Notes under the pieces: generated by a model
Seen by the model: the letters and a program-made list of their open reading frames with translations, nothing else
The model's database searches: none
Told to the model about the DNA's origin: nothing
Translations under genes and position numbers: made by a program
Shown here: positions 4,475-39,300 of the stretch, one piece after another
How positions within the stretch are numbered: the stretch's first letter is position 1
Layout of the letters: every line of letters starts with the position of its first letter
Source of the DNA: Candidatus Poribacteria bacterium
Lineage (GTDB): Bacteria > Poribacteria > WGA-4E > WGA-3G
Assembly (NCBI GenBank): GCA_965205025.1
Contig: CBDBFU010000014.1
Location: 416,147 to 480,146, forward strand
Length of the DNA stretch: 64,000 nucleotides
Direction of reading: 5' to 3'

Positions 4475-4717
4475 ATAGTTTTAGACGAAAGACAACAGAA
4501 TTAGTTGATATTACTGTAATTTACCTAAGTTCATGGTTATTCTGTTTCATCAGTATGACTATAAATCTTTGAGTATAAATCTTAGAATTATCAGTAAATA
4601 CACATTTCTTCTTATCTATTGTATCATTAAACATACTGAGGATTCTTGAAATTGTTGTCAGTATTCTATAATTATGGTATACTTTACAATCAATTAGGTG
4701 ACACGGAGGATACCTCT

Positions 4718-5485: not shown

Positions 5486-5516
5486 AAGTAAAATAGTATC
5501 AATCGGATTTTGTATG

Positions 5517-5567
5517 TGCGCGAGATTCTCTACCAGTTATCTCTGAGTGGATTCTCGCGCAGTTTTT
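5517..5567 (+). terminator. Putative intrinsic terminator
   Basis: TGCGCGAGA...TCTCGCGCA stem followed by GTTTTT, downstream of the AKR gene. Confidence 0.55.
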
Positions 5568-22743: not shown

Positions 22744-25700
22744 CTAATTATCTGCTACATCGTTAATTTGCAAATCTTCTACTGGTGTCCCATCAGTTTC
22801 GGTAACCCGCAAATAGAATCCCCAACTCATTCGCTCATTGCAAACCTTTACGAGGACGGTATTCTTGCCTGCCTTGAGCGTGACGGGAATAGTGTTTTTA
22901 TCAAGTATGGCTGTTTGAGCGTTGGGATCTGTGAATATCTCTGCGCCATTTAGCCATATTTTTGATTGGTCATCACTACAAAATCGGAACAACGCTTCTC
23001 GCTCGTTAGGAGAGGTTACGGTTGCCATTGCATAAGAAACACGCCAATCAATGTCCTCACCGAAGTCAATAAAACCGTTAAAAGCATCATCGGTAAATTT
23101 TTTCCAACTTATTTGTCCATCAATGCCTTCATATTTCTTATTTAGATCAATTTGCGTTGTGTCTTCGGGGATGTATTTCGTATTGTATCCGATTCCAACC
23201 GTGTTATCAAATGGACCGAGTATCCACCATGCATTTTCATCAATCATACCTGTTTGTCTCATCTGTTCCATTGCCTTTTCCGGCATGTTGTTTTTATTGT
23301 AGTATTCCGCTAATCCGAGATTTACATTTACGTGGAAGGTCGGTTTGGGAGGTGGTGCGTTCAACATCTCATCAGCGTTAATGAATTTCAAATCATTAAA
23401 CGGATTGCCATCTGCGTCTGTAAGTCGCATAAAAAAGTACGTGTATATACTTGCATTGCATACCTTGACGAGAATAGTGTTTTCTCCTTTTTGCAGGGTA
23501 GCAGGAAAGTTGTAGCGGTCAACTTGTGCCCCACTCATTCTATCATGCTTAAATACCCCTTTTCCGTTTAACCAGACTATTCCTTGGTCATCGCTGTCAA
23601 ATCGGATAGTAATATCGCGTTCATCAGGTGAAGAGACAATTGCCGATGCGTATGTTGCAGTCCAATCTATGTCTTCACCGAGCCAGATCATTCCATTTAC
23701 TGTGTTGTCCTCCGGTTTTTGCCAATGAATGAGTTTATCTTTTCCATAATACTTTGCAGTTGTGTCAATTTGTGTGTTGTCCTCTGGGATATAAGCGGTA
23801 TAGATGCCAACATTATCTTTATTGTCAAATGGACCTAAGGTTATCCATGCAGTTTCTGGAACAAAACCGGTTCTTAATAGATAGTTTTCCGCCTTCTTAG
23901 GCATCCCATTTTCTGCATAAGATTCAGCGATGATACGATGAATATTTGCGTGAGCATTTAAACTCTCTGCAGGAATGGAATTTATCAGTTCATTTAGTAT
24001 TTGAATGAAACGTTCTTTGTCGTTTGCATTCTTACTTGCTGCAGCGATTTCCTCCCAAAACATATCCGAATAATGTTCATTAGGTATAAAGCTTAACGCA
24101 TGTTTGAAGTGTTTTAGTGCCTCATCATAGAGTCCATTAGCGATACAAGCACGTCCAAGGGTTGTGGGATATGGAGAATAATATGAGTATGTATATTTGA
24201 AGAATGCACGTTTCGCGAAATTTAGTGCTGTTTCTGGATAAAGTCCTTTGTCAAGAAGTTTATCAGCAAAATTACGATAATTGGATGTATTCTGTGCACT
24301 GTTAACTGCTTTTTGCCGTATTTTCAACCACTGATCATAAGCGAGTTCCGCTTTATCGGGATCACCTGTTTTTGTGTAGATGTCCCCTAAAAGTTCGTGC
24401 AGGACAGCACTATTATCCATTTTTGGGAATTTTTGATGTATCTCTTCAAGGATAGCAATGTGTTTGTCTTCTTGTCCTTCGCCATCGTAAAGTCCAATAA
24501 TAGCGCGAACAGCAGAATCATATTCATTTTGTTTTAGAGTAGCAGCTAATGCGCGACGATACGATGCCTCCGCTTGTGAAGTCTGTTCGGTTTTAATATA
24601 GGTTTGTGCTAATAGGTCGTAGAGTTGGTATGAAGTCGGATCAAGTTCAATTGCTTTTTCATAAGCAGCTATTGACTTCGCCAATTGTTCGGGTATTGAT
24701 TTTTCAGACGTAGTGCCTGTTTCACGGCTCTCTTGCGGTAGATTTTGATAAAGGTCACCAAGTTTTTTGTGCCACTGTGCGTTTTCTGACTCAAGTGCGG
24801 TAAGTCTTTCGTATTGCGTCACCGCTTCTTTAATTTTATCAAAGGCTTCATAACTTTCAGCAAGTTTCAAGATACGTTTGGTATCGTTGGGATTCTGTTC
24901 CACTAATTTAAGCTGTTCCGGTATCCATTTTTCATAAAGATTACCGGATTTCGCTGCATCGTTCATTCCAGTTTCCGCTCTATTCCGTGCGTAACTATCG
25001 TCAGCATTTTTTGCCATCTGTTGATATACATTAAAAGCGTCTTCATACCGTTTGGCGGAGAGGTTGCTTTTGGCAAGAATTTCATACAAGTACTTTAGTT
25101 CCCAATTGTCATCGGAATTTTCTGCTTGAGTGACAGCATTATCAGCGAGTTTAATAGCCGATTCATACATTTCATTATCAAGACATATAGTGGCAAGTGC
25201 CCCAAAGAATGACGAGTCCTGTTTATTTTTGATGGATGCAAAAGCGATGTCGGCTTGGTTCAGGACTGTTTTCACCATATCAGGCTGGTTATTTCTATGA
25301 AAGGCAGCAGCAGCGTGATAAAAACTGCGAATATTCCTACGATCCATCGGTTCAGTTTTACTAAGTAAGTGATATGTTTCGGCAGCTTTCTGGTAATCAT
25401 TGGTATCCCAATAAATTTCAGCGAGCAGTTCAAGGACGGCAGGATTTGTAGCATCCTTTTCAAATTTACCTTCGAAAAGGGTTGTCAATACATCAAGCTG
25501 CCCTTGATTTTTATAGACATTTATCAAGGTTTTGCGTGTCTCATCACCGTCAAATCGGACTGTAATACCGTTTGAACTATAAGTCGTTGACCTCAGTATT
25601 GATTCTATCTCCTTTGATGTTTCGGTTTCGTAGTAGTCCAATGCCAAGTCTAACCTATCTTGTTTTGAGTAGACATTGAGCAGGTCGTTGGCGATTTCAT

Positions 25701-26532
25701 TTCTCTTATAGGGACTATCGGTCATTTCGAGTGCTTTTTTAAATGCATTAGCAGCTTTCTGTAATTCCCCGATATTACGAAAGTGTTGGGCGCGTTGTTT
25801 TTGCATCTCAAATGTAAGGGCACCTTCATCTTCAGTTTTCTGTAACATCTCTTCTAAATTTCCTTGATAACGATAAAGGTTGACCAATTGCCGTTCAATC
25901 CTTTCTCGATCCCATTCTGATGTTGTGGCTGAGATGGCATTCTTCAATGCTATTTCAGCAGCATCTATGTCCTCAATAAGGAAATAGTGTTCTGCAAGTC
26001 TGAGAAAGATTTCTTTATTGCTATATCCGAATACAGTTGCCATCTTATAGTTCTCGATGGCTGCAGCTACGTCACCTTCTGCTTCATAAAGTTTTGCGAG
26101 TCGTGCGTAATGTATCCCCACTTCGGGATATGTTTGAATATATGACTGCGCGATTTCAAGTGCCTCGTTGTGTTGACCAGCAGCTTGTAAACTGTTAACA
26201 AGTTCATCTTGATACTTGATGTTTTCAGGTTCAGCTTCAAGCAGTTGGCTGTAGGTTTGTGCAGCTTTTTCGTGTTGATTTGTACGTGTGTAAAGCGATG
26301 CGAGTTGTGTGCGGGATTCATTGTCTTCAGGGGTTGCGATCACAATCCGTTCATAGATTTCTATTGCTTCCTCTATTTTGTTTTGTTTCACGAATTCTTG
26401 TGCTCTATTGACGAATTCTTGTAAAGGTGTACGATTTTTTTCAGTGTCTTGTGCCGTAAGTTCTGTTATAAAAGGAACCACTATGATTAACATGAAAACG
26501 ATTAAAAAGAATATCAATTTTGATCGTGTCAT
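22744..26532 (-). CDS. Large secreted TPR protein with two tandem C-terminal beta-sandwich (PA14/carbohydrate-binding-like) domains
   Basis: Signal peptide, many TPRs, duplicated W.xLGPFDN...SDDQ..xWLNG...L.xG.NT.LVKVCN...F..R.T..DG.P domain. Confidence 0.8.
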   Translation of the reverse strand: MTRSKLIFFLIVFMLIIVVPFITELTAQDTEKNRTPLQEFVNRAQEFVKQNKIEEAIEIYERIVIATPEDNESRTQLASLYTRTNQHEKAAQTYSQLLEAEPENIKYQDELVNSLQAAGQHNEALEIAQSYIQTYPEVGIHYARLAKLYEAEGDVAAAIENYKMATVFGYSNKEIFLRLAEHYFLIEDIDAAEIALKNAISATTSEWDRERIERQLVNLYRYQGNLEEMLQKTEDEGALTFEMQKQRAQHFRNIGELQKAANAFKKALEMTDSPYKRNEIANDLLNVYSKQDRLDLALDYYETETSKEIESILRSTTYSSNGITVRFDGDETRKTLINVYKNQGQLDVLTTLFEGKFEKDATNPAVLELLAEIYWDTNDYQKAAETYHLLSKTEPMDRRNIRSFYHAAAAFHRNNQPDMVKTVLNQADIAFASIKNKQDSSFFGALATICLDNEMYESAIKLADNAVTQAENSDDNWELKYLYEILAKSNLSAKRYEDAFNVYQQMAKNADDSYARNRAETGMNDAAKSGNLYEKWIPEQLKLVEQNPNDTKRILKLAESYEAFDKIKEAVTQYERLTALESENAQWHKKLGDLYQNLPQESRETGTTSEKSIPEQLAKSIAAYEKAIELDPTSYQLYDLLAQTYIKTEQTSQAEASYRRALAATLKQNEYDSAVRAIIGLYDGEGQEDKHIAILEEIHQKFPKMDNSAVLHELLGDIYTKTGDPDKAELAYDQWLKIRQKAVNSAQNTSNYRNFADKLLDKGLYPETALNFAKRAFFKYTYSYYSPYPTTLGRACIANGLYDEALKHFKHALSFIPNEHYSDMFWEEIAAASKNANDKERFIQILNELINSIPAESLNAHANIHRIIAESYAENGMPKKAENYLLRTGFVPETAWITLGPFDNKDNVGIYTAYIPEDNTQIDTTAKYYGKDKLIHWQKPEDNTVNGMIWLGEDIDWTATYASAIVSSPDERDITIRFDSDDQGIVWLNGKGVFKHDRMSGAQVDRYNFPATLQKGENTILVKVCNASIYTYFFMRLTDADGNPFNDLKFINADEMLNAPPPKPTFHVNVNLGLAEYYNKNNMPEKAMEQMRQTGMIDENAWWILGPFDNTVGIGYNTKYIPEDTTQIDLNKKYEGIDGQISWKKFTDDAFNGFIDFGEDIDWRVSYAMATVTSPNEREALFRFCSDDQSKIWLNGAEIFTDPNAQTAILDKNTIPVTLKAGKNTVLVKVCNERMSWGFYLRVTETDGTPVEDLQINDVADN

Positions 26533-26723
26533 TGAGATATAACTTCTATGGATAAATATTCCGCCACTTCAAGATTCATCCGTTCTATTTCCGCGAGGAA
26601 ACCGCCTGCGGATAATTCATAATTCCGGGGATTAGTTTCAAACGCTTTGAGTTTTTCAACTATTTTTTGAAAGTGCTCAATGCGTTTGAGTGTTGTTTTA
26701 AGTTCTTGATCATTTTGAATCAT
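26529..26723 (-). CDS. Small helical hypothetical protein (64 aa)
   Basis: AGAGG RBS-like site upstream; stop overlaps the TPR gene start (ATGA). Confidence 0.6.
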   Translation of the reverse strand: MIQNDQELKTTLKRIEHFQKIVEKLKAFETNPRNYELSAGGFLAEIERMNLEVAEYLSIEVISQ

Positions 26724-27910: not shown

Positions 27911-28507
27911 TTAGGGTAAATGGCTCCCACTGCCGGTTTGGGACCAGAAGTCTTCGGCGGTCTGTTGATGGTTCTGACTTAGCCACTGATGAATCCGCCT
28001 AAGAATGCGTGGCAACCCTTTTTGTGGCAAGTTTTTTGATTCCCAACTTGCCATCTGCCTCCGTAGCGAAACATCAATCGGGTTTTCAACTGAAATATCT
28101 ACTTGATGGCAGGTTTGTATCAGTTTTCGGTCATCTGTTGCTAAGACGTTAGCGCTTTGTGTGCGCGTTGCCTGTAAAAGTACAGCGTCCGTAATATCAA
28201 TTTCCAATGTATCAGCAATCTGCATTGACGTGAGAGTTATCGGTAGGTCTATCTCAATAATTTTAATCGGACCGGCGGAAAATTTGGAAAGTTGTTGTGA
28301 GACAAGGTTAACATCTATATCATAGACCTTTGTGAGTATTGCTTTTACCTCCAACAATGTAAGGGTTGTCGTGAACCAACCAGCGTGTTCTCGGATAAAT
28401 GCCTCACATGCAGCAGATGCGGGGTGGTTATCAAGCAGTGAATAGACAATCAACATAGCGTCTAATCCGCGCGGTGCGAATTGATCAGAAGATAAGGTCA
28501 TCACCAC
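27911..28507 (-). CDS. PIN-domain (VapC-like) toxin with C-terminal extension
   Basis: Acidic PIN motifs LDAM, TLLEV, ITDAVLL, LATDD; overlaps the upstream AbrB-like gene. Confidence 0.75.
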   Translation of the reverse strand: MVMTLSSDQFAPRGLDAMLIVYSLLDNHPASAACEAFIREHAGWFTTTLTLLEVKAILTKVYDIDVNLVSQQLSKFSAGPIKIIEIDLPITLTSMQIADTLEIDITDAVLLQATRTQSANVLATDDRKLIQTCHQVDISVENPIDVSLRRQMASWESKNLPQKGLPRILRRIHQWLSQNHQQTAEDFWSQTGSGSHLP

Positions 28508-28713
28508 TTACCCTCGGACAAGTCTAATGCCGAAGGAGTTTCCATTTTCAGTTTTTTGGCATAAATATCGTCCCACGTCTGTGTAGTGGAAGGACGGATT
28601 AATATGCCATCGTCTGTTCTTTCGATCACGACACCCGATTCCAACCCCAATTCTTTCACCCAGTCAAGGGGTAATTTGATTTTATGATCGGTTTCTAACG
28701 AAAGTGTTTTCAT
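28501..28713 (-). CDS. AbrB/MazE-like antitoxin
   Basis: KIKLP..W..ELGL..GVVIE...GILIRP swapped-hairpin pattern; AGGAAGAGG RBS upstream. Confidence 0.7.
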   Translation of the reverse strand: MKTLSLETDHKIKLPLDWVKELGLESGVVIERTDDGILIRPSTTQTWDDIYAKKLKMETPSALDLSEGKW

Positions 28714-28870: not shown

Positions 28871-29362
28871 CTAATCTGCCTCACCTGCATCTTGAAGTGC
28901 GTTTTTGATGAGCAACTCGCTCAGGTGCATTCCGTTATCCTGTAACTGAATTAAAAGCGGCTTGATGACTTCAATTAAGCCTTTTTCCTTTGCCTCAAGT
29001 AAAACGCCTACTGTGCCTTTAGTCATTATTCTGATTTTTTTCGCCTTCTGTCTTCCCCTCTTTTCATCAAGAAGAACGAGCCGTGCGTCATGTTCATTAG
29101 CAAGAGCCAATGCCTCGGCTTCACCATCATCAAGTTCCGTATGAACTGCAGCGGTTCGCGGATCCGTTAAATCAATAGTCTTAATCCAGGGGGCATTTTC
29201 GAGTGCCTCTCGGCGGACTATTGGATCCTTTTTGAGAAACTCCTTTTCAACTTTTCTTGGAATCCACACCTCTGTATAAAGATCCCGCAACAGAGAAAGT
29301 AGGTTGAGGCCTAAGAGTCCAACAAGCGGACTGTTATTGCTAATAACTGGCTGTGTTGGCAT
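28871..29362 (-). CDS. DUF3368 / COG2405 PIN-domain protein (predicted toxin)
   Basis: VISNNSPL, IP..V..E, LDDGEAEALALA, LLDEKRGR, GTVGVLLEAKEKGLI. Confidence 0.85.
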   Translation of the reverse strand: MPTQPVISNNSPLVGLLGLNLLSLLRDLYTEVWIPRKVEKEFLKKDPIVRREALENAPWIKTIDLTDPRTAAVHTELDDGEAEALALANEHDARLVLLDEKRGRQKAKKIRIMTKGTVGVLLEAKEKGLIEVIKPLLIQLQDNGMHLSELLIKNALQDAGEAD

Positions 29363-29364
29363 TC

Positions 29365-30654
29365 TTAATGTCCGCTATTGACAAGTTCCTCTTCATCAAG
29401 AGTCAAGAGAGAGAGTCCGTAATCTCCCATCAGATACCAGAATTCTTCGCGTGGCACACCTGCCAGACGTGCTGCCAGACCGCTGCTGAGTTCGTCGTTT
29501 CCATAATACTTCATTCCCAACGCGATCCGCGCATCTTTATCAATTTCAAACGGTTCGCTCCGCGGTGTCAACAACGTTACAATCTTTTTCGGCAAACGAC
29601 TCCCTATCTTCTCCTCAAAGGCAGCAATGCTCCCGTGGATATTGTGAAATACAGCGGCAACATCCACTTCTTGAAGAAGTGCAGCAGTCAAATCGGTCTC
29701 CGCTTCTTCCCAACCTTTCGCAAGCAACCACGCCTCACCCCGTATATAATAGAATTCAGGGACCTTTGGTCTGCGTGTTAGTGCCTCGGTATAATTCGCA
29801 ATTGCGCTGTCTAACTCGGCTTTGGCACGATAAGCGTTGCCTCGATGTGTGTATGCCTCCACAAGTTCTGAATTAATCTGTATGGCTTTGTCATAATCTT
29901 TAATCGCCTTGTCCAATTCGTTTTTGGCGTAGTAAACCTGACCCCGATTGAGGTATGCCTCGGCAAATTCTGGATTGCAGTCGATTGCCTGACTATGATC
30001 TTCAATCGCTTTGTCTATCTCGCCTTGTTCGTTGTAGATGAGACCGCGGCAGGTATAGGGTTCTGCAGATTTTGGGTTGAGTTCTATGGCTTTGTTGTAA
30101 TCTACAATCGCCTTGTCTACCTCGTCTTTATCACGATAAGCCTTACCGCGTTCCGTATAAGCCTGGGTAAACTCTGGGGCCATCTCTATCGCAGCGTTAT
30201 AGTCTTCAATCGCCTTGTCTACGTCCCCTTTGCTATGGTAGGTTATACCGCGTTCTTTATATCTATCGGCAGCCTCTTCGGGTTTGAGACGTATCGCCGT
30301 GCTAAAGTCTTGGATGGCTTTCTCAAAAACCAGCAGATTGCGGTAAGCCATCCCGCGGCCATAGTAGGCAAATGCATCGTCAGGTGTGAGGCTTATGACT
30401 TTGCTAAAATCATCGACTGCACGATAAAACTTGCCCTTGTTGTAGTAAGCTATGCCTTGCTGCCCGTAGGCAATGACATTTTCCGGATCCAGTTCTATTG
30501 CTTTGCTAAAGTCTGCAATGGCCTGATCGTACTCACCGTTTTTGAGGTGAGCAATACCACGGGTGTTATGCATCGACGCAGCACCTCCGCTTTTTGCGTC
30601 AACAAAATCGCTGTTGTAATAGGTATCCACAGAACCTTGGATCAGTTCTTGCAT
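29365..30654 (-). CDS. TPR-array protein fused to a C-terminal UPF0175 (COG2886)-like antitoxin domain
   Basis: About 8-9 canonical 34-aa TPRs; C-terminal RIALGMKYY...LSSGLAARLAGVPREEFWYLMGDYGL...DEEEL. Confidence 0.8.
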   Translation of the reverse strand: MQELIQGSVDTYYNSDFVDAKSGGAASMHNTRGIAHLKNGEYDQAIADFSKAIELDPENVIAYGQQGIAYYNKGKFYRAVDDFSKVISLTPDDAFAYYGRGMAYRNLLVFEKAIQDFSTAIRLKPEEAADRYKERGITYHSKGDVDKAIEDYNAAIEMAPEFTQAYTERGKAYRDKDEVDKAIVDYNKAIELNPKSAEPYTCRGLIYNEQGEIDKAIEDHSQAIDCNPEFAEAYLNRGQVYYAKNELDKAIKDYDKAIQINSELVEAYTHRGNAYRAKAELDSAIANYTEALTRRPKVPEFYYIRGEAWLLAKGWEEAETDLTAALLQEVDVAAVFHNIHGSIAAFEEKIGSRLPKKIVTLLTPRSEPFEIDKDARIALGMKYYGNDELSSGLAARLAGVPREEFWYLMGDYGLSLLTLDEEELVNSGH

Positions 30655-30992
30655 CGGTTTTCTCCTTCACAAGGCAAGTTTCTTGAGGGTAATGATAACA
30701 TACAATACGCCCTGATTTCAACGGAATGTAGGAGTGATCACCAGATCCCGACTGCTCTACTTATGGTTTGTTCATCCTCTATGTTCCGTTCCAGGATTGG
30801 AACTGTTGGTGTAAGCAGTTTTAGGAGTTACTCATCAGCTTGCCTTCACAATCCTACATTCTTTGCGATATACCTCACAATAGTCTGAATCGCGGATTAC
30901 GCGGATGACATGGATTTCGCGGATTAGTGTTCTGTACAATCAAGTAATCTGCAAAGCGGAGAATTGAATAACGTTATCTGTGGGACAGCGGC

Positions 30993-31214
30993 TTAACTTG
31001 ATAGATCACAAGTATGTGGTGTTATTTGAGGTACAACGGTATCTACTTCTTGAATGGCATGCCAATCAATCACCGCAGTCCACAACTTTTCTTCTTCTGA
31101 GTAGTGAACAACACCTTCAGCCTCCAGTTCTTCGCTATAGATGATAAGGGATTGTCCCTCTTTTGAATCATTTTTGCTTTCCACGATCTCGCTCCAGCGG
31201 AGTGCTCTGTCCAT
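30993..31214 (-). pseudogene. Probable 5'-truncated small hypothetical gene
   Basis: C-terminal EGQSLIIYSEELEAEGVVHYSEEEKLWTAVIDW looks protein-like, N-terminus does not; no clear RBS. Confidence 0.45.
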
Positions 31215-31253
31215 AGAGAGGTAAAAGGACTGGAAGATGTCAACATCCGTTTG

Positions 31254-31646
31254 TTACACAACCCATGATTGTATACGATCTGCGATGACCGTAATATTGG
31301 TGATAGTGCCATCCGCAATCTTAAAACCGAGGTCAATAATCGAATCATCAAGATCTAGCAACAAGAAGTACCCGTTTATGTTTAAAAACAAAAGCATGCA
31401 ATGCATACCAATACGCTTATTCCCATCCAAAAATATGTGTCCGGTAATGATATGATGTGCATAAACAGCGGCTTTTTGGAATATAGTTGGATAAAATTCT
31501 ATATCTCCAAATTTCCCGCCAACCGCTTCAACCAAATAGTGTAACTGATTTTCCTTGAGCACCTGATAGTCGTCTACGTAGTCTATGGCAACTTTCAGGA
31601 TATCCTCAATTGTCAAATATCTTATAAGTTGTCGAGGGCTTTCCAT
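31254..31646 (-). CDS. doc: Doc (Fic/Doc family) toxin
   Basis: FYPTIFQKAA, HIFLDGNKRIG (Doc-type HxFxDGNKR); 130 aa. Confidence 0.88.
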   Translation of the reverse strand: MESPRQLIRYLTIEDILKVAIDYVDDYQVLKENQLHYLVEAVGGKFGDIEFYPTIFQKAAVYAHHIITGHIFLDGNKRIGMHCMLLFLNINGYFLLLDLDDSIIDLGFKIADGTITNITVIADRIQSWVV

Positions 31647-33547
31647 GCGCGATCGTAGTCTTGTAGTATTCCATCCGAGGTGATAATAACATCAACCCCC
31701 ATATTTCTGGCAGTTGTCAAGTCTGATTTGGCTTTTTCTCGTTCTCCGAGGCGTAGAAATACTCCGCCCCGACTGTAATAAGCATCAGCATAATCGGGAT
31801 CGAAGTCTATTGCTTTTGTATAGTCTTCAATGGCACGTTCAACCTCACCTATTTTGCTGTAAGTTTGCCCACGATTGTAATGGGCAACAGCATAATCGGG
31901 TTTAAGTACTATTGCCTGACTGAAGTCTCGGATGGCGATCTCAAAATCGCCTTTTTTCAAGTAAGTAGCACCCCGATTACTATAGGCTTCGGCGTAGCGT
32001 GAGTTATGTTGTATTGCAGTGTTATAGTTTTGTATTGCATTGTCCAACTCACCTTTCTTCAGATAAATATTACCGCGGTTGTTATAGGCATCGGCATAAT
32101 CAGGTTGTAGGTCTATCGCAATGTTATAGTCTTGTATAGCTGTGTCCAACTCACCTTTTTTCATGTAAGCGACCCCACGATTGTTATAGACCTTGGCATC
32201 ATCAGGGTTAAGTTGTATGGCTTGGGTATAATCTTGAATAGCTTGGTTAAAATCGCCTTTTCTCTGGTAAGCGTTTCCACGATTTTTATAGGCCGCGGCA
32301 TCATCTGGTTGAAGTTTTATAGAGATGTTGTAGTCATTGATAGCACTATCAAAATCTCTTTTTACTTCGTAGACATTACCTCGATGGTGATAAACCTCAG
32401 CAAAATCGGGTTTCAATTCAATCGCTTTGGTGTAGTCTCTGATGGCATTATCAAGTTCGCCTTTGTCAGCGTAAGCATTACCACGATTGTTATAGGCATT
32501 GGGAAAATTAGCTCTCAATTCAATCGCTTTGGTGTAGTCTCTGATGGCATTCCCAAGTTCACCCTTGCCAGCGTAAGTAGCACCACGACCATTATAGGCG
32601 TCGGCAAGATAGGGTTGCAGTTGTATTGCTTTTGTATAGTCTCTGATGGCATTCCCAAGTTCACCGTTATCATCGTGAGCAATACCACGATTGTAATAGG
32701 CATTGGCAAAATCGGGTTTCAATTCAATCGCTTTGGTATAATGCTTAATAGATTTCTCATATTCTTCTCGTTTTAATTCAGAAGATGTTTCTTCATCGCC
32801 TCTATCTTGACAGGCAAAACCTTTATAAAACTCTGTGTAGGCATCCCCATGAATGGCTTGGTTTCTAATAAATCCGTGAAGGTCGTTATAGATGGTTTCT
32901 GTGAATGTAGTGTGATAATTCCGCAGGTGTTCCAGCATCGGTTGTTTTAGGTGTAACGGTATAATGATTATCTCGTCCTCACGCGGTTCAATAAATCCTT
33001 TTGGAGGTCTTATGAATACGCTTTTTTGGGTGATGACTCTATGCCGTGGGTTTCGAGGGTGCGCGATCATGCTTCTTATCTCATCTATTTTTTGAAGGAT
33101 AACTCGCCCGTCTTCCTCATTATGACCGTCGCAAGCAAAGAAAAGGGCAATAAAGTAGTCGGTTGTGAAGTCAATGAGGTTTGTTTTACCACCATAATGC
33201 TGGATTTCAGTAAGAATTTCAAAATCTATCGCTTCCTGTGTGGACTCGTCTACCGTATTCGGTGATGCTAAGACATCCAGACGAAAGTCATGGGGGAGGT
33301 CCCCCGTATGTTTTTTCGCAGCAGCTAGCATCTCTTTTTGTACGAGTTCTATATCAAAGTGTTCCTCTTCAATGCTGTATTCGCGCCAAAGATTTGAAGA
33401 TACTTTCCCATTGTATGGATGTTCTTTATGTAGTTTACGTTCACCACGATAGATATAACCGCCACCTTTCGATTTTGTCTCTATCTCGCGGATGATGTCT
33501 TCAATTGTCTGTGATTTATCATTTAAGGTACTGGATTGATTTGACAT
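31622..33547 (-). CDS. FRG-domain + TPR-array protein with a short antitoxin-like C-terminal helix
   Basis: FRG motifs YIYRGE, QHYGGKTNLIDFT..YFIALFFAC, RVITQKSVF; about 10 TPRs; AGGAAGG RBS upstream. Confidence 0.85.
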   Translation of the reverse strand: MSNQSSTLNDKSQTIEDIIREIETKSKGGGYIYRGERKLHKEHPYNGKVSSNLWREYSIEEEHFDIELVQKEMLAAAKKHTGDLPHDFRLDVLASPNTVDESTQEAIDFEILTEIQHYGGKTNLIDFTTDYFIALFFACDGHNEEDGRVILQKIDEIRSMIAHPRNPRHRVITQKSVFIRPPKGFIEPREDEIIIIPLHLKQPMLEHLRNYHTTFTETIYNDLHGFIRNQAIHGDAYTEFYKGFACQDRGDEETSSELKREEYEKSIKHYTKAIELKPDFANAYYNRGIAHDDNGELGNAIRDYTKAIQLQPYLADAYNGRGATYAGKGELGNAIRDYTKAIELRANFPNAYNNRGNAYADKGELDNAIRDYTKAIELKPDFAEVYHHRGNVYEVKRDFDSAINDYNISIKLQPDDAAAYKNRGNAYQRKGDFNQAIQDYTQAIQLNPDDAKVYNNRGVAYMKKGELDTAIQDYNIAIDLQPDYADAYNNRGNIYLKKGELDNAIQNYNTAIQHNSRYAEAYSNRGATYLKKGDFEIAIRDFSQAIVLKPDYAVAHYNRGQTYSKIGEVERAIEDYTKAIDFDPDYADAYYSRGGVFLRLGEREKAKSDLTTARNMGVDVIITSDGILQDYDRAWKALDNL

Positions 33548-33750: not shown

Positions 33751-34260
33751 TCAACGATTAACAGTAACGTATTGATTGTGTTTCAATTGAGTTTTCTTTA
33801 TAGGATATTCAGGACTTTCTTTTACTTGTTCCCTAATTTTACGGAAAAATCCTAATTCATCCTCACGAACATAACGCCAAGATTGTGGAACAGTGAAGTT
33901 TGGAATCTCATTTCTCAATTCACTTAGGGGTACTGGTTTCTGAACTTCCCATACTTTTGTAATTTCAAAGGCATAAGCAACAGTTTTTCCTTCAAAATAA
34001 GAATCAAAGTCCTGTTTCTTTACCTGAGCCAAGTTTTCCACCATACTCCAAATTTGTTGAGGTGTTCCTGTCCAAAAATCTCCTACACGAAACCCACCAC
34101 GTAGGGCCATTGTAGGACTAGAAACATATACAAAAACGTCTCGGTTCTGTATGTGTAAGGCAATGCGACGGCGTAGCTCAGCTGTTTTAAGTTCCATAAA
34201 AACTAAGTCCGCATAACAGGGCTTCAAGGAAAGAATTATAGGTTGTATTATTGCTTTCAT
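33751..34260 (-). CDS. ASCH/PUA-domain protein
   Basis: ILSLKP.Y...V....K.AELRR, YVSSP, PQSWRY. Confidence 0.85.
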   Translation of the reverse strand: MKAIIQPIILSLKPCYADLVFMELKTAELRRRIALHIQNRDVFVYVSSPTMALRGGFRVGDFWTGTPQQIWSMVENLAQVKKQDFDSYFEGKTVAYAFEITKVWEVQKPVPLSELRNEIPNFTVPQSWRYVREDELGFFRKIREQVKESPEYPIKKTQLKHNQYVTVNR

Positions 34261-36275
34261 TATAAGTTGGGATATCCTTTCTGAAATAACTCGTGAAATA
34301 TTTCTGGTGTGACTTTTGATGGAGCTTGCAAAAATAGTCCTGTGTTGTTCTGGTTGTAAATATCTCTTAGTTCATCCAATAAAATTGGCTTCCTAAAGGG
34401 AAACGTGTGCGAAAACTTTAAAGCCATAAGTTCTTTTATCGGATCGCCATTACACATTTTAAAAATGTCTCTCCATTCCAATATCCCGAATTTTTTGAAT
34501 TTTCTGAAAAGTTCTTTAGCTGAGTCAATTACGACCTCGTCAAGAGTAGAAACAGCCACGATTTCTTTTTTTCTTCCGGTGACGTACCATAAAATCCGGG
34601 CTGGGGCAACAAGCATTTTATGGAGATTTTTTGATCGATAATACACGTTATTCCAACGCAGTAAGATTTGCGGATTCCCTCCAATCAGACTGTTAGAGGA
34701 CTGCTCTCTGTCAATGAGACCCATTGCGTAGTGGGGTCGAATTGGTATCAAAAAATAATTCTGATCAACACAATCCAAAACAAGGGGAGAACAACGCCGT
34801 TCAAGTTCAATATTTGACATTGCCTGATAAATGCCTTCAAATTCAGGATTTAATTCTGATATCAATGCCAAGGTTTCCGTACGGCTTAGGTAACTTGAAA
34901 AGCAAAATCTAACGAAACTTTTATCTTGTTCTATAAATCCCATCTCTATTAGGTCTGGTATTAAACTGGGTGTGAGTGAAGAAGTATCGAACTTGACAAT
35001 TTCAATATTCTTTTCAACTGCCTTGGAGACGGTATCTGCAATTAAAAAACGTCCGAATAATGAACCTTTGACAGAAGTTGCTATTCTTGCTAAGGGAACA
35101 TTGAGTATTTTGCTGGAGTTCCTCATCAATATTCGAATGGCAATAATATCATCACCTGATCGGAGGAGTTCACATTCGGATTCATTAGTCTGAACAATTA
35201 ACGATTCCAAAATTTCTCTTAACTTACCTTTTCTTTCACGATTTTTTTGGAAGGAAGCAAAAGGGAAATCAATTAAGTCTTTAGACATTAAGCGTTCCCA
35301 GCGAAGATTTAATCCTGCAATACGTTTTGGTGCGTAGGATTGTCCTTCATTCAATTCATGAAGTTGTATTATTAATTGAGCAGGATTCACTACCTTGATT
35401 CCTGTCGCGTCATAAATTTTCTTTGAATCCTTCAACAGATTACTGTCTCGGGTAACAAAAGTCTTCACATCAGAAGCAGCAGATTTTGCTAATTGTCTAA
35501 TATCAGATTCTTGGCTAGGTTTATTACGGGGAAGAAAGTCATTTAAAAGTGCTTCATACTCCTCAACTAAATTTGGCTCATATTCTATTTTAGGAAAATT
35601 CTGTGCTCTACTTCGAGATCTTTTACGCTTTATGGGATCTTCTTGCCGGTCAATCTCATTCAAGAGTTCATCAGTAATCCATAGGTCAAGAGAATCTACC
35701 AAGAAGTCAGCAAGGAGTGTTTTAGCTGGCATGGATTTGTCACTATCTGGTTCATCGAAGTCAAAGAAGAGTTGGGCATCAATTATAATATCAAGGGCAT
35801 CTGTTGATGTTTTTCCTTGAAAGAGTTCTAATTGCTCATCCTGTGCCAAGGTAAGTTGCCAGATTGTCAAAATGTTATCAGCTTTGGATCGACTAGGTTT
35901 TTCACCTAAAGCCACGAACCGTAATTTTGGCCACATAACATGTGCTGGATAATCACGGCGGCAATTGAGTTTTATAGATTTTTGAGTGGTGGCAGAATTC
36001 TTTAATTCATTAATCAGTTTTCTGGCGATACCATGGCCTCGGTGTTCTTCTGTTACACAAAGATGAGTAATTCTAAAGTAGTTTATGCGATCCGCATAGA
36101 GTAAGTAACCAACAAGATTCCCATTATCAGTTTTGACCCCTAGCACACTTCCTTTGTCAAGATAACTTTGCAGAGCTTCTCTTGGAAGAAAACCAAGCGT
36201 TCGACTGTAACGTTTCATTAACTCGTCTACTGAGTTTAAATCGATTGAGGAAAGTTGTGAAATTGTTACGTTCAT
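34260..36275 (-). CDS. GNAT-PIN-(PUA/EVE-like) multidomain protein
   Basis: GNAT HLCVTEEHRGHGIA; PIN IIDAQ, ELLNE, SDIRQL, FVTRD; C-terminal LIPIRP.Y, NVYYRS, RILWYVT; start taken at MNVTIS, downstream of a TTGACA-17-TATATT promoter. Confidence 0.8.
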   Translation of the reverse strand: MNVTISQLSSIDLNSVDELMKRYSRTLGFLPREALQSYLDKGSVLGVKTDNGNLVGYLLYADRINYFRITHLCVTEEHRGHGIARKLINELKNSATTQKSIKLNCRRDYPAHVMWPKLRFVALGEKPSRSKADNILTIWQLTLAQDEQLELFQGKTSTDALDIIIDAQLFFDFDEPDSDKSMPAKTLLADFLVDSLDLWITDELLNEIDRQEDPIKRKRSRSRAQNFPKIEYEPNLVEEYEALLNDFLPRNKPSQESDIRQLAKSAASDVKTFVTRDSNLLKDSKKIYDATGIKVVNPAQLIIQLHELNEGQSYAPKRIAGLNLRWERLMSKDLIDFPFASFQKNRERKGKLREILESLIVQTNESECELLRSGDDIIAIRILMRNSSKILNVPLARIATSVKGSLFGRFLIADTVSKAVEKNIEIVKFDTSSLTPSLIPDLIEMGFIEQDKSFVRFCFSSYLSRTETLALISELNPEFEGIYQAMSNIELERRCSPLVLDCVDQNYFLIPIRPHYAMGLIDREQSSNSLIGGNPQILLRWNNVYYRSKNLHKMLVAPARILWYVTGRKKEIVAVSTLDEVVIDSAKELFRKFKKFGILEWRDIFKMCNGDPIKELMALKFSHTFPFRKPILLDELRDIYNQNNTGLFLQAPSKVTPEIFHELFQKGYPNL

Positions 36276-36399
36276 ATAATAGTTAATATTAATATAACAC
36301 AATATTTTAGTTGTGTCAAACTTTTTTAGGTATATCAGTCAAAAAATCGTCATCGGGAACATAAACATGATAATTCAAAGTTCCTTACATATCCAGGAT

Positions 36400-39300
36400 T
36401 CAGACAACATCCTCCACAATAGCAATCTCATCTTTCGTTAAATCATACAACGCATACACCAGCTTATCAATCTCATTTTCAAGGTCGGAAGTGTCGGCAT
36501 CGGGGTTGGTTTGTTTAGCAGCAAGTATCTGATCGACTAATCCAATAAAAGATTGTTGCTGTGAGGCAGGAATCTTAACAACAGGCAATTTCTCTAAAGC
36601 ATGTTGGTTGTATTGGTATCCCTTTTTACCAAGCACGGTTCCGCCATAATATTGCTTGTAAGCGAATGTCATTAGAATAGAACTCAGCAACCCAACTAAC
36701 AATTTTAAATCACTACCGGTTATCATAAAACAAGTCTTCTCTATAAAATATTTTCCATCATCGTAGAAAAAGTTGGCGGTGTGTGTTGTTTCAGGATAGA
36801 TAATTTTTTCTTTTTCAAATGCTGAATGGTAAGCACAATGTCTAAGATTATAAGGTGTGTGTCCCTTGTCTCTTCGTTTTTGAAGTTGGGTGTAAAAGCT
36901 ATCTAAATGTCTTTTAACTATTGGATAATTGTTTACTTCAATTGCTGGAACATTTGCATATCCGTTATGTGTTACTATCATCCATAATCCAGACCAATTA
37001 GCTTGATAACGCTTAATATCTCGTCCTTTTAGAACGGGCTTAATAATTTCAACGGACTTGGGGTCGGCTGCTATCAGTGCCTCCTTTGTTTGATTATCAA
37101 TAAGAAAGGCAGTGTTATAACCTGTCTTGATTCCATAGTTGATACTTATATCCCATTCCTTAAGCGGAACACCGATGTCCTCTATTTTATGTTTCAAGCT
37201 AAGTTCAGCAGATGAGAGAATTGCCCACGGTTCACCTTTATCGGGGACATCCATCGTTGAGCCATAATCAGTTAGATATTGGGTAATATTACCTGTTTGC
37301 CTATCAAAATCAGTACCGATGGATACACCGCTGAAAGTATCAGGAACATCAGAAACGGTGTTTTGGAATAACAGAATATTCGTGTCCACTGTGGCATCAA
37401 AAACATCAGGTCCCATATCCAACAATTGAATTGGTTGGATATGGGTAATAAAATAATCTCTCAACTTTTTACCATATCCTGCACGCATCCATTTGTTAGA
37501 AGTAATGAAACAGAGGTGTCCTTTTCTATTTAAAAGTTTGTGTCCCTTTTCATAGAATAGACAATAAATATCACCCATCCTTGTAAAAGAGTCAAATTCG
37601 CAAGGTTGATATAAATCTGCTAATCTTCCTCCATCTCTTTGAAGTTGAATATAGGGTGGATTCCCGATTACCATATCAAACCCATCTGTGTTACCAAACA
37701 TCCATTCTGGATCAAACCAATCTGCAGATACGTTTTGATCATAAATGTCCCATTGTGCTATTTTCTCAGCCTCATCTGAGAGCATACCCAATGCTTGTAG
37801 TTCTTCTCCTAATTCTGCACGTAATCTTTCGTCTTCTTCTTTACATTTTCGTTTCTTTTGTCGTGTGGTGGCATGAAAGTGTTGTTCTCGGTTGTTTCGC
37901 AATTCTCGTTCTAAATCAACCACCCTTTGATTCGTAAATGTTCGTTGACTACTGAAACCTATCAACGTATTCGCAGCAATAAACCGCGTCTCTAAGTTCG
38001 GCAAAGGTTTGATGCCGAAATTCTCCGCATCTCTGTCCGATTCCTGTTCAATAGCAAGTGAGATAAAAAATCGGAGTTTGGCGATTTGGCACGCGATCGG
38101 TTGGATGTCTACACCGAAGATACTGTTTTGAATTAAGTATAATTTTCGTCCAAAGTCAGAATCTCGGTATCGCTCAAATGTATCACTGATTTCCGTGAGT
38201 TCCTCATTTCGTTCCTGTTGATTTTGCGTGTTGTAGGCTTTTTCAGAACGGACAATTGCCATGTTCCTTTGTAGTGCTTCCCAACGTGTATTATCAGGAT
38301 CAAGTCTCCTGAGTGCGAGTGTCAATTTGTGGAGAACTCCCATCGGAAACGCACCGGAACCGACTGCGGGATCCAATATTTTGAGATTAGAGATTGTTTT
38401 GACAATAGCGTCTATTTCTTGGTCGTCAAACCATTCGCTTGCATCATCAGAAGCCTTTGTATAGTCAAAAAGATAGTGTAACCGTTTCTCCCATGGTATA
38501 TCATTATCATCAACGGGTTGGCACTCTACGGCTATGGTAGCAACCAACGCTTCATCAACCATATAATCCACAATTGTGCGGGGTGTGTAGTAGGAACCTG
38601 TCTGTTTTCGTGCAGTTTCTCCCGTTTCCGGATTGTACGCAGCAAGTAGGTTTTCGAACACTCTACCGAGTAGCTCTGGATCAAGTGCAACTTCCTGATC
38701 TATCGGTGTGTTTTCCTCAACAGTAAACTTATAGTGTTGAAGTAGAGGAATTAAGCCATCCTTATGAAAAAAGAGACGGTTTGGAATGCTTACCCCATGG
38801 TATTGATTATCAGAAAAGCAATCTATGCGGTAACTATCATCACCTGTTGCTTCCCAAGAATCCAAACAATCAAACAATCCTCCATTGATAAAGGGTGTTT
38901 CAGCAAACAATTCCAATAATCTATCGGGATCTTCCATCTGTGCTTTGTAGCGGTATCGAGAGAAATCGCGATTGGTGGAATAACCTTCTGTGCTAAACTT
39001 ACGTCTGTCAATCTCTGTGTTTAATGTTGCGAAAAAGAGGTTTTGAAGGACGGCACGATAATAGGAATCCCCATTCTCAAAATCATCTTCAACCAATAGT
39101 TCTTGTATTTGTGCTTTGTTGAACAACTCTTCGGTGACTAATCCTTTTTCCTTGATAAACCAGATAAACAGAAGACGCGTGATGAGACGGATTACATGTT
39201 CCTCTGCTTTTATAACTCGATTTCCTTCAGTCGGAAATCTTGCAGTCTCAACTGCCCATTCATACCATGTAAATAGTCTTCGGTAGAATTGTTTGTTGAG

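Follow-up and report, generated by a model that had tools for sequence, protein, structure and literature searches.

In the 64,000-nt window of Candidatus Poribacteria DNA analysed here, two neighbouring genes encoding TPR proteins are each followed closely by the gene of a different toxin, Doc in one case and a DUF3368 PIN protein in the other, and neither toxin has a free-standing antitoxin gene at this locus. This raises the question of where the antidotes reside. Comparison of the sequences suggests that, for several toxin-antitoxin pairs of sponge-symbiont Poribacteria, the antidote is not a small protein of its own but the C-terminal end of a large TPR protein. The absence of separate antitoxin genes had been claimed in an earlier note on this DNA, which had also placed all four genes correctly, as judged from the ORF translations. 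Their layout is as follows:

31622-33547, minus strand: gene A, an ORF of 641 aa with an FRG domain, a TPR array, a cap and a predicted Doc-type antitoxin tail
33110-33457, minus strand: FRG domain of A, residues 31-146 (Pfam PF08867, E 9.4e-12)
31793-32812, minus strand: TPR array of A, residues 246-585, built of nine 34-residue units plus a partial one
31691-31792, minus strand: cap unit of A, residues 586-619, from the cap HMM and alignment with 25 relatives
31625-31690, minus strand: Doc-type tail of A, residues 620-641 (22 residues), C-terminal end ..DYDRAWKALDNL
31254-31646, minus strand: Doc (Fic-fold) toxin, 130 aa, identified by Pfam Fic and NCBIfam DOC_P1; its gene shares 25 nt with A
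29365-30654, minus strand: gene B, an ORF of 429 aa with a TPR array, a cap, a CTD and UPF0175
29761-30579, minus strand: eight-unit TPR array of B (residues 26-298); Pfam recognizes eight TPR_1 stretches in B
29563-29760, minus strand: cap (residues 299-332) and CTD (333-364) of B, which the alignment shows as a conserved module of some 70 residues at the junction
29368-29562, minus strand: predicted UPF0175 (COG2886-type) antitoxin domain of B, residues 365-429 (Pfam PF03683)
28871-29362, minus strand: DUF3368 PIN toxin, 163 aa (Pfam PF11848, 50.1 bits, cut-off 27.3)

The FRG domain of A, found by Pfam, was missing from the earlier description. It also matches PDC-S15 (E 2.5e-13), one of the PADLOC PDC families, which are candidates and not validated systems; passages of PMC9503650 describe FRG as a putative NADase effector of the ART superfamily. 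Pfam recognizes ten TPR_1 stretches in A. The motif D..R-A-W-K..L of the Doc-type tail is invariant in all 26 aligned sequences, and neither Phd nor any other family shows detectable similarity to the tail in sequence: a search with the last 60 aa of A in Pfam and NCBIfam returned TPR only, and a PDB profile search retrieved only TPR chains. Short-read contigs cross the TPR-tail-Doc junction with 0 differences (31308-32230 and 31413-32230); they come from two runs of one study, X1 and X2, and X1 may be the source sample.

The Doc protein, the sole copy in its own genome, is recognized by Pfam (Fic/Doc, E 2.9e-10) and NCBIfam (DOC_P1, 59.5 bits, cut-off 38.65), and its closest solved chains are 9vzc_A (E 5.9e-10) and the P1 Doc structures 3k33, 3dd7 and 3kh2. 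The overlap of 25 nt with A is real if Doc starts at the ATG at 31646. In 11 of 24 related loci, the long Doc frame is interrupted by a stop at codon 6, so that Doc there must start 21 nt downstream, at an ATG that forms an ATGA overlap with the upstream TGA; the corresponding codon in the window is ATA because the stop of A is TAA. No free-standing antitoxin lies between Doc and B, the sole ORF there (30993-31214, 73 aa) having no family match and no conservation across related loci.

The UPF0175 domain of B (Pfam match at residues 365-424, 47 bits, cut-off 27.9) is the only one above the cut-off in its own genome, and the DUF3368 PIN, separated from B by exactly the 2 nt that had been reported, is likewise a single copy and matches the PADLOC candidate PDC-S70 (E 2.3e-42). 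The cap-CTD of B is covered by no family in Pfam or NCBIfam; in a predicted model of B, three short helices would follow the cap (pLDDT 90-93 for cap and CTD, 82-88 for UPF0175). To judge by their residues, both toxins look intact: Doc carries HIFLDGNKR, of which H.F.DGNKR is invariant across 25 sequences, and the PIN retains the acidic residues E41, E81 and D99, invariant in 126/126 relatives, together with E100, a position occupied by E or D in each of the 126. Beside this locus, an AbrB-like gene (28501-28713) pairs with a PIN gene of its own (27911-28507).

The two TPR proteins share a chassis. Their caps are identical at 13 of 31 positions, counted on the translations, and within their own genome a cap HMM distinguishes units of this kind from ordinary TPRs: A and B, both inside the training set, score 77 and 65 bits, nine further proteins outside it score 31-52 bits, and the remaining TPRs at most 24.5. 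This bears out the earlier claim that A and B carry the same cap followed by unrelated tails. Across the family, the layout is an FRG, a TIR or a short leader, then 2 to >30 TPRs, the cap, in some cases the CTD, and a C-terminal module. Among the 12 scanned N-termini of 19 long members, TIR_2 occurs in L005, L023, L030 and L034 and FRG in L024 and L033. Cap-CTD units also occur internally, followed by further repeats (L009/L031, L033, L035, P0002), which shows end-to-end gene fusion. In a sample picked by cap-CTD alone, 78 of the 111 cap ORFs have no tail of any kind, and others have ends that are not antitoxins: TaqI_C, a ThsB-like TIR and DUF4268.

Both arrangements recur in other Poribacteria MAGs. 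We found 26 Doc loci, and in all 25 that could be evaluated the upstream gene ends in ..LD.I...YDRAWK.L..., with an identical junction register in 24. Their homology to the window is limited to about 31880-31240, that is, the last two or so TPRs, the cap, the tail and Doc; 15 of the 25 are short, with frames of at most 161 aa, 2-3 repeats and no effector domain. In all ten PIN loci, the upstream gene encodes TPR-cap-CTD-UPF0175 and ends 2-11 nt before the PIN, and homology is limited to a 1.7-kb unit (window 30565-28868) with 80-90% identity in ten other genomes. Because dozens of MAGs contain the fusions, these are not a peculiarity of one assembly or a product of frameshift errors, and the chance fusions offered as an alternative in the earlier note are too weak a description of something recurrent, old and under purifying selection.

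The tabulation of tails and downstream genes that the note had proposed, together with the cap HMM, revealed recurrent tail-toxin matching. It covers 152 unique cap ORFs from the window's own genome and 116 loci, some picked by toxin (L001-L036) and others by cap-CTD (L037-L116), and is thus not a random sample:

Doc-type tail: Doc downstream, 28; no toxin downstream, 3
UPF0175 tail: PIN downstream, 13; no toxin downstream, 2
ParE-type tail: ParE downstream, 2; no toxin downstream, 0

No tail type is paired with the toxin of another among the 152 ORFs. The 103 cap ORFs that have no antitoxin tail have no such toxin downstream either, except that in six the locus ends too soon to tell. The one ORF left over belongs to the unfused L022 locus described below. 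Each tail is thus coupled to its own toxin, as had been proposed, with ParE as a third pair, and the tails behave as interchangeable modules on a shared TPR-cap chassis: the relative P0009 is 58% identical to A across 573 aa and ends in UPF0175, whereas A, an FRG-TPR protein, ends in the Doc-type tail. Three Doc-type tails have no adjacent Doc, and two of these lie among gene fragments in the window's own genome, so that a tail can persist after its toxin is lost or can work in trans. The PIN is truncated in L098 and absent in L111, and the Doc of L025 is short of its first 16 residues.

Some loci preserve what look like steps towards fusion. In L022, a TPR-cap-CTD gene is followed by a separate 69-aa antitoxin and then Doc; elsewhere in this locus (4633-5523), TPR-cap-CTD is joined to a complete small antitoxin and overlaps a ParE_toxin gene (Pfam E 8.5e-9) by 20 nt. 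In L023, L024, L049, L065 and L066, the C-terminal half of the antitoxin is fused in frame 3' of the CTD, and L024 retains the former start residues of the antitoxin at the fusion. The Poribacteria antitoxin family concerned (69-111 aa) is itself modular, combining one N-terminal half with a Doc-type, a ParE-type or a third kind of tail.

Every part of the modules is under purifying selection. The dN/dS is 0.14 for Doc, 0.21 for the Doc-type tail and 0.28 for the TPR and cap adjoining it; it is 0.22 for the TPR array of B (residues 30-295, 11 orthologues), 0.16 for its cap-CTD, 0.13 for UPF0175 and 0.44 for the PIN. The dS behind the values of 0.13-0.28 for tails, arrays and Doc is about 0.6-1.0.

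When Doc was co-folded with the C-terminal 38 residues of A, the score was 0.52 (median of three runs), and the best of three controls scored 0.00. The runs share at least 94% of their contacts, with a partner pLDDT of at least 63. Of 80 solved complexes, 58 reach the mark that this pair passed, against 2 of 110 mismatched pairs, but the pass is a weak one: only seven of the 80 complexes reach the mark at 0.60 or below, together with both passing mismatches. Moreover, since Phd-Doc complexes have been solved, the pass may stem from resemblance to those structures and not from binding by the window copy. The model thus lends weak support to the notion that the Doc-type tail may bind Doc. No solved structure for UPF0175 or a DUF3368 PIN partner was found by sequence.

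The reading that we prefer, at a probability of roughly 55%, is that these are two type II toxin-antitoxin modules, one of Doc and one of a VapC-like DUF3368 PIN, whose antitoxin part, in place of a small DNA-binding protein, is the C-terminal module of a TPR protein belonging to a Poribacteria-specific, highly recombinogenic and modular family. The tail (about 22 residues for Doc, the whole UPF0175 domain for the PIN) would bind and silence a toxin produced from the translationally coupled gene just downstream of the TPR-antitoxin gene, and the toxin would act once synthesis of the TPR-antitoxin stops or the protein is broken down, as happens in ordinary type II systems. The chimeras would have arisen where a toxin-antitoxin operon immediately behind a TPR gene became fused to it in frame, and through recombination within the repeats; this would explain the presence of one tail-plus-toxin unit on arrays that differ greatly in length and in their N-terminal domains. 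Counted against this reading are the dN/dS of the PIN, which exceeds that of its UPF0175 antitoxin, the truncated and missing PINs, the Doc-type tails that have no Doc beside them, the dissimilarity of the Doc-type tail to Phd, and the TPR body, which has no evident DNA-binding domain through which it could regulate its own operon, as type II antitoxins typically do.

A sensor function is possible, if doubtful: the TPR array would bind a phage or host protein, and binding, oligomerization or induced proteolysis would free the tail-held toxin. Just as tentatively, in the FRG and TIR versions the ligand might also switch on the N-terminal NAD-consuming domain, giving a one-polypeptide immune sensor with plug-in toxins. 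FRG and TIR are indeed interchangeable at the N-terminus, and passages of PMC9503650 describe both as NAD-targeting immune effectors. The window locus adjoins a type IIG restriction-modification gene, the candidate system PDC-M11 and a VapBC-like pair, and L022-L024 adjoin Eco57I/TaqI_C genes, while the purifying selection on the arrays argues that they do something. TPR positions 2, 5, 9, 12 and 13 form the putative ligand face, and substitutions among B orthologues are enriched there (mean 0.37 versus 0.25 at other non-core positions, permutation p 0.026); however, this enrichment is modest and expected of any weakly constrained surface as well, and the PADLOC matches of FRG and PIN are to candidates only. 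A simple sensor platform, as first proposed, is disfavoured by the Doc modules with only 2-3 repeats and no effector, by the tail-less majority of cap proteins in the cap-CTD sample and by genomic context: 20 of the 25 Doc modules occupy one conserved site beside a 92-100% conserved MPI-cupin gene, with LolA-like, MacB/FtsX and acyltransferase genes, neighbours that mark it as a housekeeping site and not a defence island. Pfam also detects no NTPase or other switch domain.

It is unlikely that the units are selfish stabilizers that protect loss-prone TPR genes that have a separate job, for example in symbiosis. With the sole antidote welded to its 3' end, deletion of a TPR gene would be penalized, and the family is recombinogenic, with varying repeat number, internal cap-CTD units and swaps of chassis; modules are retained at one chromosomal site in many genomes while the adjoining TPR genes vary, and because most members are tail-less the family as such needs neither tail. 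Yet the commonest Doc form, with its minimal body, leaves little to protect, orphan tails and lost toxins show the linkage to be often broken, and this explanation makes no prediction separating it from the ordinary persistence of chromosomal toxin-antitoxin genes. That the modules are inert, with tails as antitoxin relics, toxins inactive or otherwise neutralized and an architecture devoid of present function, seems highly improbable. The orphan tails amid gene fragments, the truncated or missing PINs, the shortened Doc of L025 and the PIN dN/dS would fit such decay, but frames are intact up to 1329 codons in many genomes, the dN/dS of tails, arrays and Doc is 0.13-0.28, and the catalytic motifs of Doc and PIN are kept.

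Among known systems, the Avs/STAND-like and PMC7159879 effector-NTPase-repeat systems resemble the family in joining TIR or FRG to a long TPR array and in that some loci adjoin restriction-modification genes, but the NTPase domain is absent here. A term search of PMC7159879 gave 0 occurrences of 'FRG', and among 12 of its 14 passages on 'antitoxin', 'Doc' and 'PIN' none describes an antitoxin joined to an array of repeats. According to passages of PMC6929052, UPF0175/COG2886 forms a predicted toxin-antitoxin composite with DUF3368/COG2405, which it precedes. Free-standing UPF0175 antitoxins are <100 aa (96 aa in the table of that paper). The PIN module shares both families, their order and tight spacing with this VapBC-like composite; its UPF0175, in contrast, makes up the C-terminal 65 residues of proteins that range from 429 to 1329 aa, the lengths in related loci being those of the frames. 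With Phd-Doc of phage P1 and chromosomes, the Doc module shares a toxin with H.F.D(A/G)NKR, a directly upstream antitoxin with overlapping start and stop, and neutralization expected from a short C-terminal segment; it differs in replacing the PhdYeFM-type N-terminal domain with 2 to >20 TPRs, sometimes preceded by FRG or TIR, and in a tail dissimilar in sequence to Phd.

Type II antitoxins can also be built by mix and match, as in the Panacea system, whose PanA domain pairs with many toxins. Here, the common module is instead a repeat scaffold with a cap and optional enzyme domains; it is not a domain devoted to antitoxin function or to DNA binding, and antitoxins are a minority within the scaffold family. 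The principle is nevertheless alike, one common module being combined with varied toxin-specific parts and toxins, and it appears in classic form in the Poribacteria family of 69-111-aa antitoxins.

Gene A and Doc, and gene B and PIN, are two neighbouring pairs of genes, all co-oriented on the minus strand by ORF translation, in contig C14 of a genome (5.66 Mb, 33 contigs) in which Doc, DUF3368 PIN and UPF0175 each occur exactly once above cut-off. Below, the cap is the last repeat unit common to A and B, and the CTD is the short conserved extension after it.

28871-29362, minus strand: PIN, a DUF3368 PIN protein
29365-30654, minus strand: gene B, 429 aa, eight TPR units; cap at residues 299-332, CTD at 333-364 (32 residues), UPF0175 at 365-429
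31254-31646, minus strand: Doc, a Doc-subfamily Fic protein with HIFLDGNKR
31622-33547, minus strand: gene A, 641 aa, FRG + TPR + cap + tail; FRG domain at residues 31-146 (Pfam), nine full 34-residue TPR units and one partial, repeats beginning near residue 246, cap at residues 586-619 and a 22-residue tail after it

The earlier note had correctly seen in A a TPR array with a tail and had overlooked the FRG domain. Doc is matched by Pfam Fic (E 2.9e-10) and by NCBIfam DOC_P1 (59.5 bits against a cut-off of 38.65), and the H, F, D, G, N, K and R of its motif are invariant across 25 sequences. UPF0175 in B (PF03683, 47 bits) covers residues 365-424, and PIN matches PF11848 (DUF3368) at 50.1 bits. 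The acidic residues E41, E81 and D99 of PIN match positions invariant in 126 of 126 aligned relatives, and E100 one where all 126 have E or D. Inactivation of PIN by the N at position 9 was considered and rejected, because N is the commonest residue of the family there (N 76, D 49).

Both junctions are as first described: PIN starts 2 nt past the TAA of B, and Doc overlaps A by 25 nt when read from the ATG at 31646, which falls inside the codons of the invariant Ala-Trp of the tail. The usual Doc start in relatives lies 21 nt further on, at an ATG overlapping the upstream TGA (ATGA). A stop closes the longer Doc frame in 11 of 24 related loci, so that Doc must start at ATGA there, and the ATG of this type is also kept in most of the others. 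In the window this downstream ATG is now ATA; therefore Doc must start either at the ATG of the 25-nt overlap or at a TTG at codon 11. Contigs from two sequencing runs of one study, one of which may be the source sample, span the array-tail-Doc junction with zero differences; the contigs listed for those runs are fragmented by repeats, and none bridges the B-PIN junction. The statement that neither toxin has a free-standing antitoxin gene also stands: the sole candidate named, an ORF at 30993-31214, was rejected as a downstream antitoxin, being neither conserved nor matched by any family.

The fusion of TPR proteins to tails that match the following toxin recurs well beyond this assembly. A search with Doc, taking one genome per species, returned 26 loci, one of them a 23-residue fragment; the tail ..LD.I...YDRAWK.L.. 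ends the upstream gene in all 25 evaluable loci, with a common junction register in 24. What precedes the tail is a frame of at most 161 aa with 2-3 repeats in 15 loci and an array of 339-765 aa in nine, and locus L022 has a free 69-aa non-TPR antitoxin ahead of Doc. The search with PIN gave 10 loci, and in each of them PIN is preceded, at a distance of 2-11 nt, by a gene of 439-1329 codons for TPR-cap-CTD-UPF0175. A Pfam scan of 12 of the 19 long N-termini (it left out L001, L010, L013, L025, L028, L029 and L036) found TIR_2 in two and FRG in one of the Doc loci with long arrays, and the same numbers in the PIN loci. Among 5.8 billion proteins searched with the tail region of B, 17 are TPR-UPF0175 proteins, three with FRG and one with TIR_2. 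Since A is 58% identical over 573 aa to the database protein P0009, which ends in UPF0175, a single chassis carries either tail. A third pair occurs in L022, and also in L059 and L066, where a complete small antitoxin follows TPR-cap-CTD in frame and the gene overlaps a ParE_toxin gene. The related Doc and PIN loci all come from records titled as Candidatus Poribacteria MAGs, except for a few titled 'uncultured bacterium'; the organisms are sponge symbionts.

Tabulation of tails against downstream genes, proposed in the earlier note, bears out recurrent matching of tail and toxin, with no wrong toxin after a tail among 152 unique cap ORFs, a sample that is not random because the loci L001-L036 were picked by toxin.

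Ends of cap ORFs and the toxin genes downstream (own genome and 116 loci pooled, 152 unique cap ORFs)
Doc-type tail, Doc downstream: 28
Doc-type tail, no toxin downstream: 3
UPF0175 tail, PIN downstream: 13
UPF0175 tail, no toxin downstream: 2
ParE-type tail, ParE downstream: 2
CTD only, no toxin: 66 (and 6 where the locus ends)
CTD only, Doc downstream: 1 (the unfused L022 locus)
Long tail (>250 aa), no toxin: 18
Other end, no toxin: 13

The cap, which the earlier note had described as common to A and B, is a real unit, apart from ordinary TPRs. The two caps have 13 of 31 residues in common; with a cap HMM, nine other proteins of the same genome score 31-52 bits, and ordinary TPRs at most 24.5. 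Cap and CTD together form a module some 70 residues long, in which Y, W, D-L, A, F, L-P and L are invariant and which no Pfam or NCBIfam family covers. The NCBIfam model NF047558 ('TPR end-of-group') was rejected as the cap; it matches generic repeat positions 1-34 only and gives zero match to the cap-CTD segment alone. For the 170 C-terminal residues of B, a confident AlphaFold model (mean pLDDT 78.6, about 82-93 over residues 41-150; pTM 0.70) predicts a hairpin for the cap, three short helices for the CTD and a unit of three helices for UPF0175. A fold search of the modelled cap-CTD-UPF0175 against the PDB found none at E <= 0.001, designed or natural TPRs being the only matches. By sequence against the PDB, the last 99 aa of B (CTD end and UPF0175) gave chance-level matches only (E 0.31-0.53), and PIN nothing at E <= 1.

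Cap-CTD is matched by 684 database proteins, and Pfam matches among the best 120 add TaqI_C, FRG, TIR_2, UPF0175 and SMI1_KNR4. In the 80 loci selected by cap-CTD alone, the tail is absent in 78 of 111 cap ORFs and long in 14; the remaining ends include UPF0175, Doc-type and ParE-type tails, a ThsB-like TIR and DUF4268. The one long tail checked, in L016, contains a TaqI_C specificity domain (E 1.8e-17). Because most ends are tail-less or not antitoxins, cap-CTD is a junction of general use that carries antitoxins in a minority of cases.

Several other features of this family were observed. Its commonest non-empty C-terminal module, of about 383 aa, ends cap-CTD proteins in L016, L017 and L025 and in two other contigs of the window's own genome (C13:49918-52581; C15, minus strand, 93449-96445 in strand coordinates), with N-termini that are TIR-TPR or, by eye only, HNH-like. 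Such genes lie within about 1.5 kb of the TPR-Doc module in L016, L017 and L025, and the one in C13 lies about 1.8 kb upstream of a Doc-type tail with no adjoining Doc. The module, which in L016 includes the TaqI_C domain, may serve a TIR protein as its DNA-recognising arm. FRG-domain matches in the genome number at least eight, and five FRG/TPR-cap genes and fragments are clustered in tandem about 140 kb from the window (C14:270213-278887). Six of the 80 cap-CTD loci (L051, L056, L084, L087, L096 and L105) come from MAGs labelled Gammaproteobacteria, Latescibacterota or Dehalococcoidia, the other 74 being labelled Poribacteria or, in three cases, just 'uncultured bacterium'; horizontal transfer among sponge symbionts, or binning or labelling error, could account for these labels.

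The origin of the chimeras can be followed in related loci. L022 has the unfused state, a TPR-cap-CTD gene and its stop, then the 69-aa antitoxin, then Doc; in L023, L024, L049, L065 and L066 the C-terminal half of the antitoxin stands in frame after the CTD, and the former initiator region is still visible in L024 and in the ParE-type fusion. The free antitoxins form a family of 192 matches, at least 120 of them listed (P0287-P0406; L022 3816-4022), of 69-111 aa and belonging to no Pfam family. The family is itself modular, a common N-terminal half being joined to a Doc-type, a ParE-type or a third tail (e.g. P0343). DNA similarity to the window covers, for the Doc module, only about 31880-31240 (the last two or so repeats, cap, tail and Doc) and, for the PIN module, 30565-28868 (nearly all of B and PIN). 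Several long proteins have an internal cap-CTD followed by further repeats and a B-like unit, and are thus end-to-end gene fusions.

Both modules are maintained under constraint. Values of dN/dS (Nei-Gojobori) on the Doc side (22 sequences) are 0.14 for Doc, 0.21 for the tail and 0.28 for the repeats and cap beside it; on the B/PIN side (11 sequences) the array of B has 0.22, cap-CTD 0.16, UPF0175 0.13 and PIN 0.44. The TPR array is conserved and is therefore not junk. Decay is seen as well: L095 has a Doc-type tail without Doc, the PIN of L098 is truncated and that of L111 is absent. In the window's own genome, two TPR-cap proteins have Doc-type tails and no adjoining Doc (C13:54405-55094 and C14:276971-277699); they may be orphans of pairs whose toxin was lost, or extra antitoxins that serve the window's Doc in trans. 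Behind the one in C13 lie remnants of an AbrB/PIN pair that resembles the one at 27911-28713 of the window.

The modules of the window sit in a defence-like island with three further units.

27911-28713, minus strand: VapBC-like pair, directly downstream of the DUF3368 PIN
33751-36302, minus strand: PDC-M11 unit, two overlapping genes, directly upstream of A
36400-39993, minus strand: type IIG restriction-methylase, 1197 aa, Eco57I + N6_Mtase + TaqI_C (PADLOC REase_MTase_IIG, E 9e-138)

PADLOC PDC families are candidates drawn from defence-island enrichment, and their function is putative only. The FRG part of A, and that part only, matches PDC-S15 (E 2.5e-13), and PIN matches PDC-S70 over its full length (E 2.3e-42). 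The unit at 33751-36302 is a candidate defence system: a 680-aa protein with an N-terminal GNAT matches PDC-M11A (E 3.6e-18), and a 169-aa protein without a Pfam family matches PDC-M11B (E 2.2e-28). The VapBC-like pair is a 70-aa AbrB/MazE-like protein (weak Pfam match, E 0.0035) overlapping a 198-aa PIN protein (PF01850, E 6.9e-8). Many TIR-TPR-cap-CTD proteins have long C-terminal ends that belong to the same family as the TaqI_C of the type IIG enzyme. At 26529-26723, on the minus strand, a 64-aa ORF without a family match overlaps by 4 nt the start of a TPR gene (22744-26532, 1262 aa); its DNA recurs at 75-84% identity beside TPR genes in L003, L015, L025 and L028.

Elsewhere the setting is of another kind. 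An MPI-cupin gene, 92-100% conserved, follows Doc in 20 of 25 Doc loci, and 11 of the 25 have a LolA-like gene on the upstream side. The remaining neighbours were typed in one locus, L008, and are MacB/FtsX, acyltransferase and TIM-barrel genes. This location (L001-L021) is an old, fixed chromosomal site. At the equivalent site of the window's own genome (C14, about 94.8-109 kb) there is no Doc, and the module stands 340 kb away beside restriction genes; it has evidently moved. The neighbours in L030, the PIN locus checked, are GNAT, NDK and lectin-like genes.

A type II antitoxin is as a rule a small protein with a DNA-binding domain and a disordered toxin-binding end; going by their families, Doc would block translation through EF-Tu, PIN would cleave RNA and ParE would poison gyrase. 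The reading that we prefer is ordinary type II logic with an unusual antitoxin body, in which the tail would silence the co-translated toxin and the toxin would act once the TPR-antitoxin is lost. In Phd-Doc, the toxin is inhibited through binding of the antitoxin's C-terminal segment. Co-folding of the window's Doc (alignment of 25 rows) with the 38 C-terminal residues of A weakly supported such a contact, with a score of 0.52 (median of three runs), the best of three controls reaching 0.00. In calibration, 58 of 80 solved complexes passed the mark, as did 2 of 110 mismatched pairs; at scores of 0.60 or less, only 7 of the 80 solved complexes passed, along with both of those mismatches. Contacts agree between runs to at least 94%, and partner pLDDT is at least 63. 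Because Phd-Doc structures exist, the score may reflect likeness to known complexes; a profile of the tail against the PDB found no Phd.

Gated release, in which binding of a ligand to the TPRs would free the toxin, is in our view an unlikely, minority reading. Substitutions between B orthologues are modestly enriched (p 0.026) at repeat positions that we take to be ligand-facing; however, the TPR body has minimal forms, the chromosomal site is a housekeeping one, no switch domain is present and many relatives are tail-less. Somewhat more doubtful still is a broader scheme in which the FRG/TIR-TPR-cap proteins would be single-chain immune sensors, the array recognising a phage or sponge-host protein and thereby triggering both the N-terminal NAD-consuming domain and the release of tail-docked Doc, PIN or ParE, with cap-CTD as universal socket. 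If it were true, the socket would also take TaqI_C, for DNA recognition, and TIR modules, and Poribacteria would possess a combinatorial defence toolkit made by recombination within repeats.

The toxin-binding ends of at least three kinds of antitoxin have repeatedly been moved to a protein-protein interaction scaffold. The resulting natural series begins with a free antitoxin, passes through a body of 2-3 repeats and ends in arrays that exceed 1000 residues and have enzyme domains; it lets one ask what the N-terminal half of an antitoxin is for and whether a binding event can be made to control toxin release. Sponge symbionts are famous for an excess of TPR 'eukaryote-like' proteins, part of which can be recast as a modular, probably conflict-related family.

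We found no description of TPR-antitoxin fusions in open-access full text, supplements lying outside its scope, including PMC9503650, PMC7159879, PMC6929052 and bioRxiv 10.1101/2023.12.08.570793. Unlike STAND/Avs proteins, with their central P-loop NTPase (NACHT/NB-ARC/STAND), A and B have no NTPase between effector and repeats; no NTPase family is among the best 25 of 32 Pfam matches of A or the best 25 of 33 of B. The B-PIN pair resembles COG2886/COG2405 in having a DUF3368 PIN with conserved acidic residues and UPF0175 just upstream, but here UPF0175 is a domain of the 429-aa B and not a free protein. As in Phd-Doc, the toxin of the A-Doc pair is a Doc-subfamily Fic protein with the H.F.(D/N)(A/G)NKR motif, and the gene with the putative antitoxin tail lies directly upstream, co-oriented and translationally coupled, with start and stop overlapping. 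Whereas the Phd-Doc antitoxin has the Phd/YefM fold, with an N-terminal DNA-binding dimerisation domain, A has FRG and TPR; Phd/YefM is absent among the best 25 of its 32 Pfam families and from its last 60 aa, and the free-standing 69-aa relative gives no match to it. Each component family, and the modularity of antitoxins, is already known; what is new is a repeat scaffold, optionally with FRG or TIR, that carries at least three antitoxin types.
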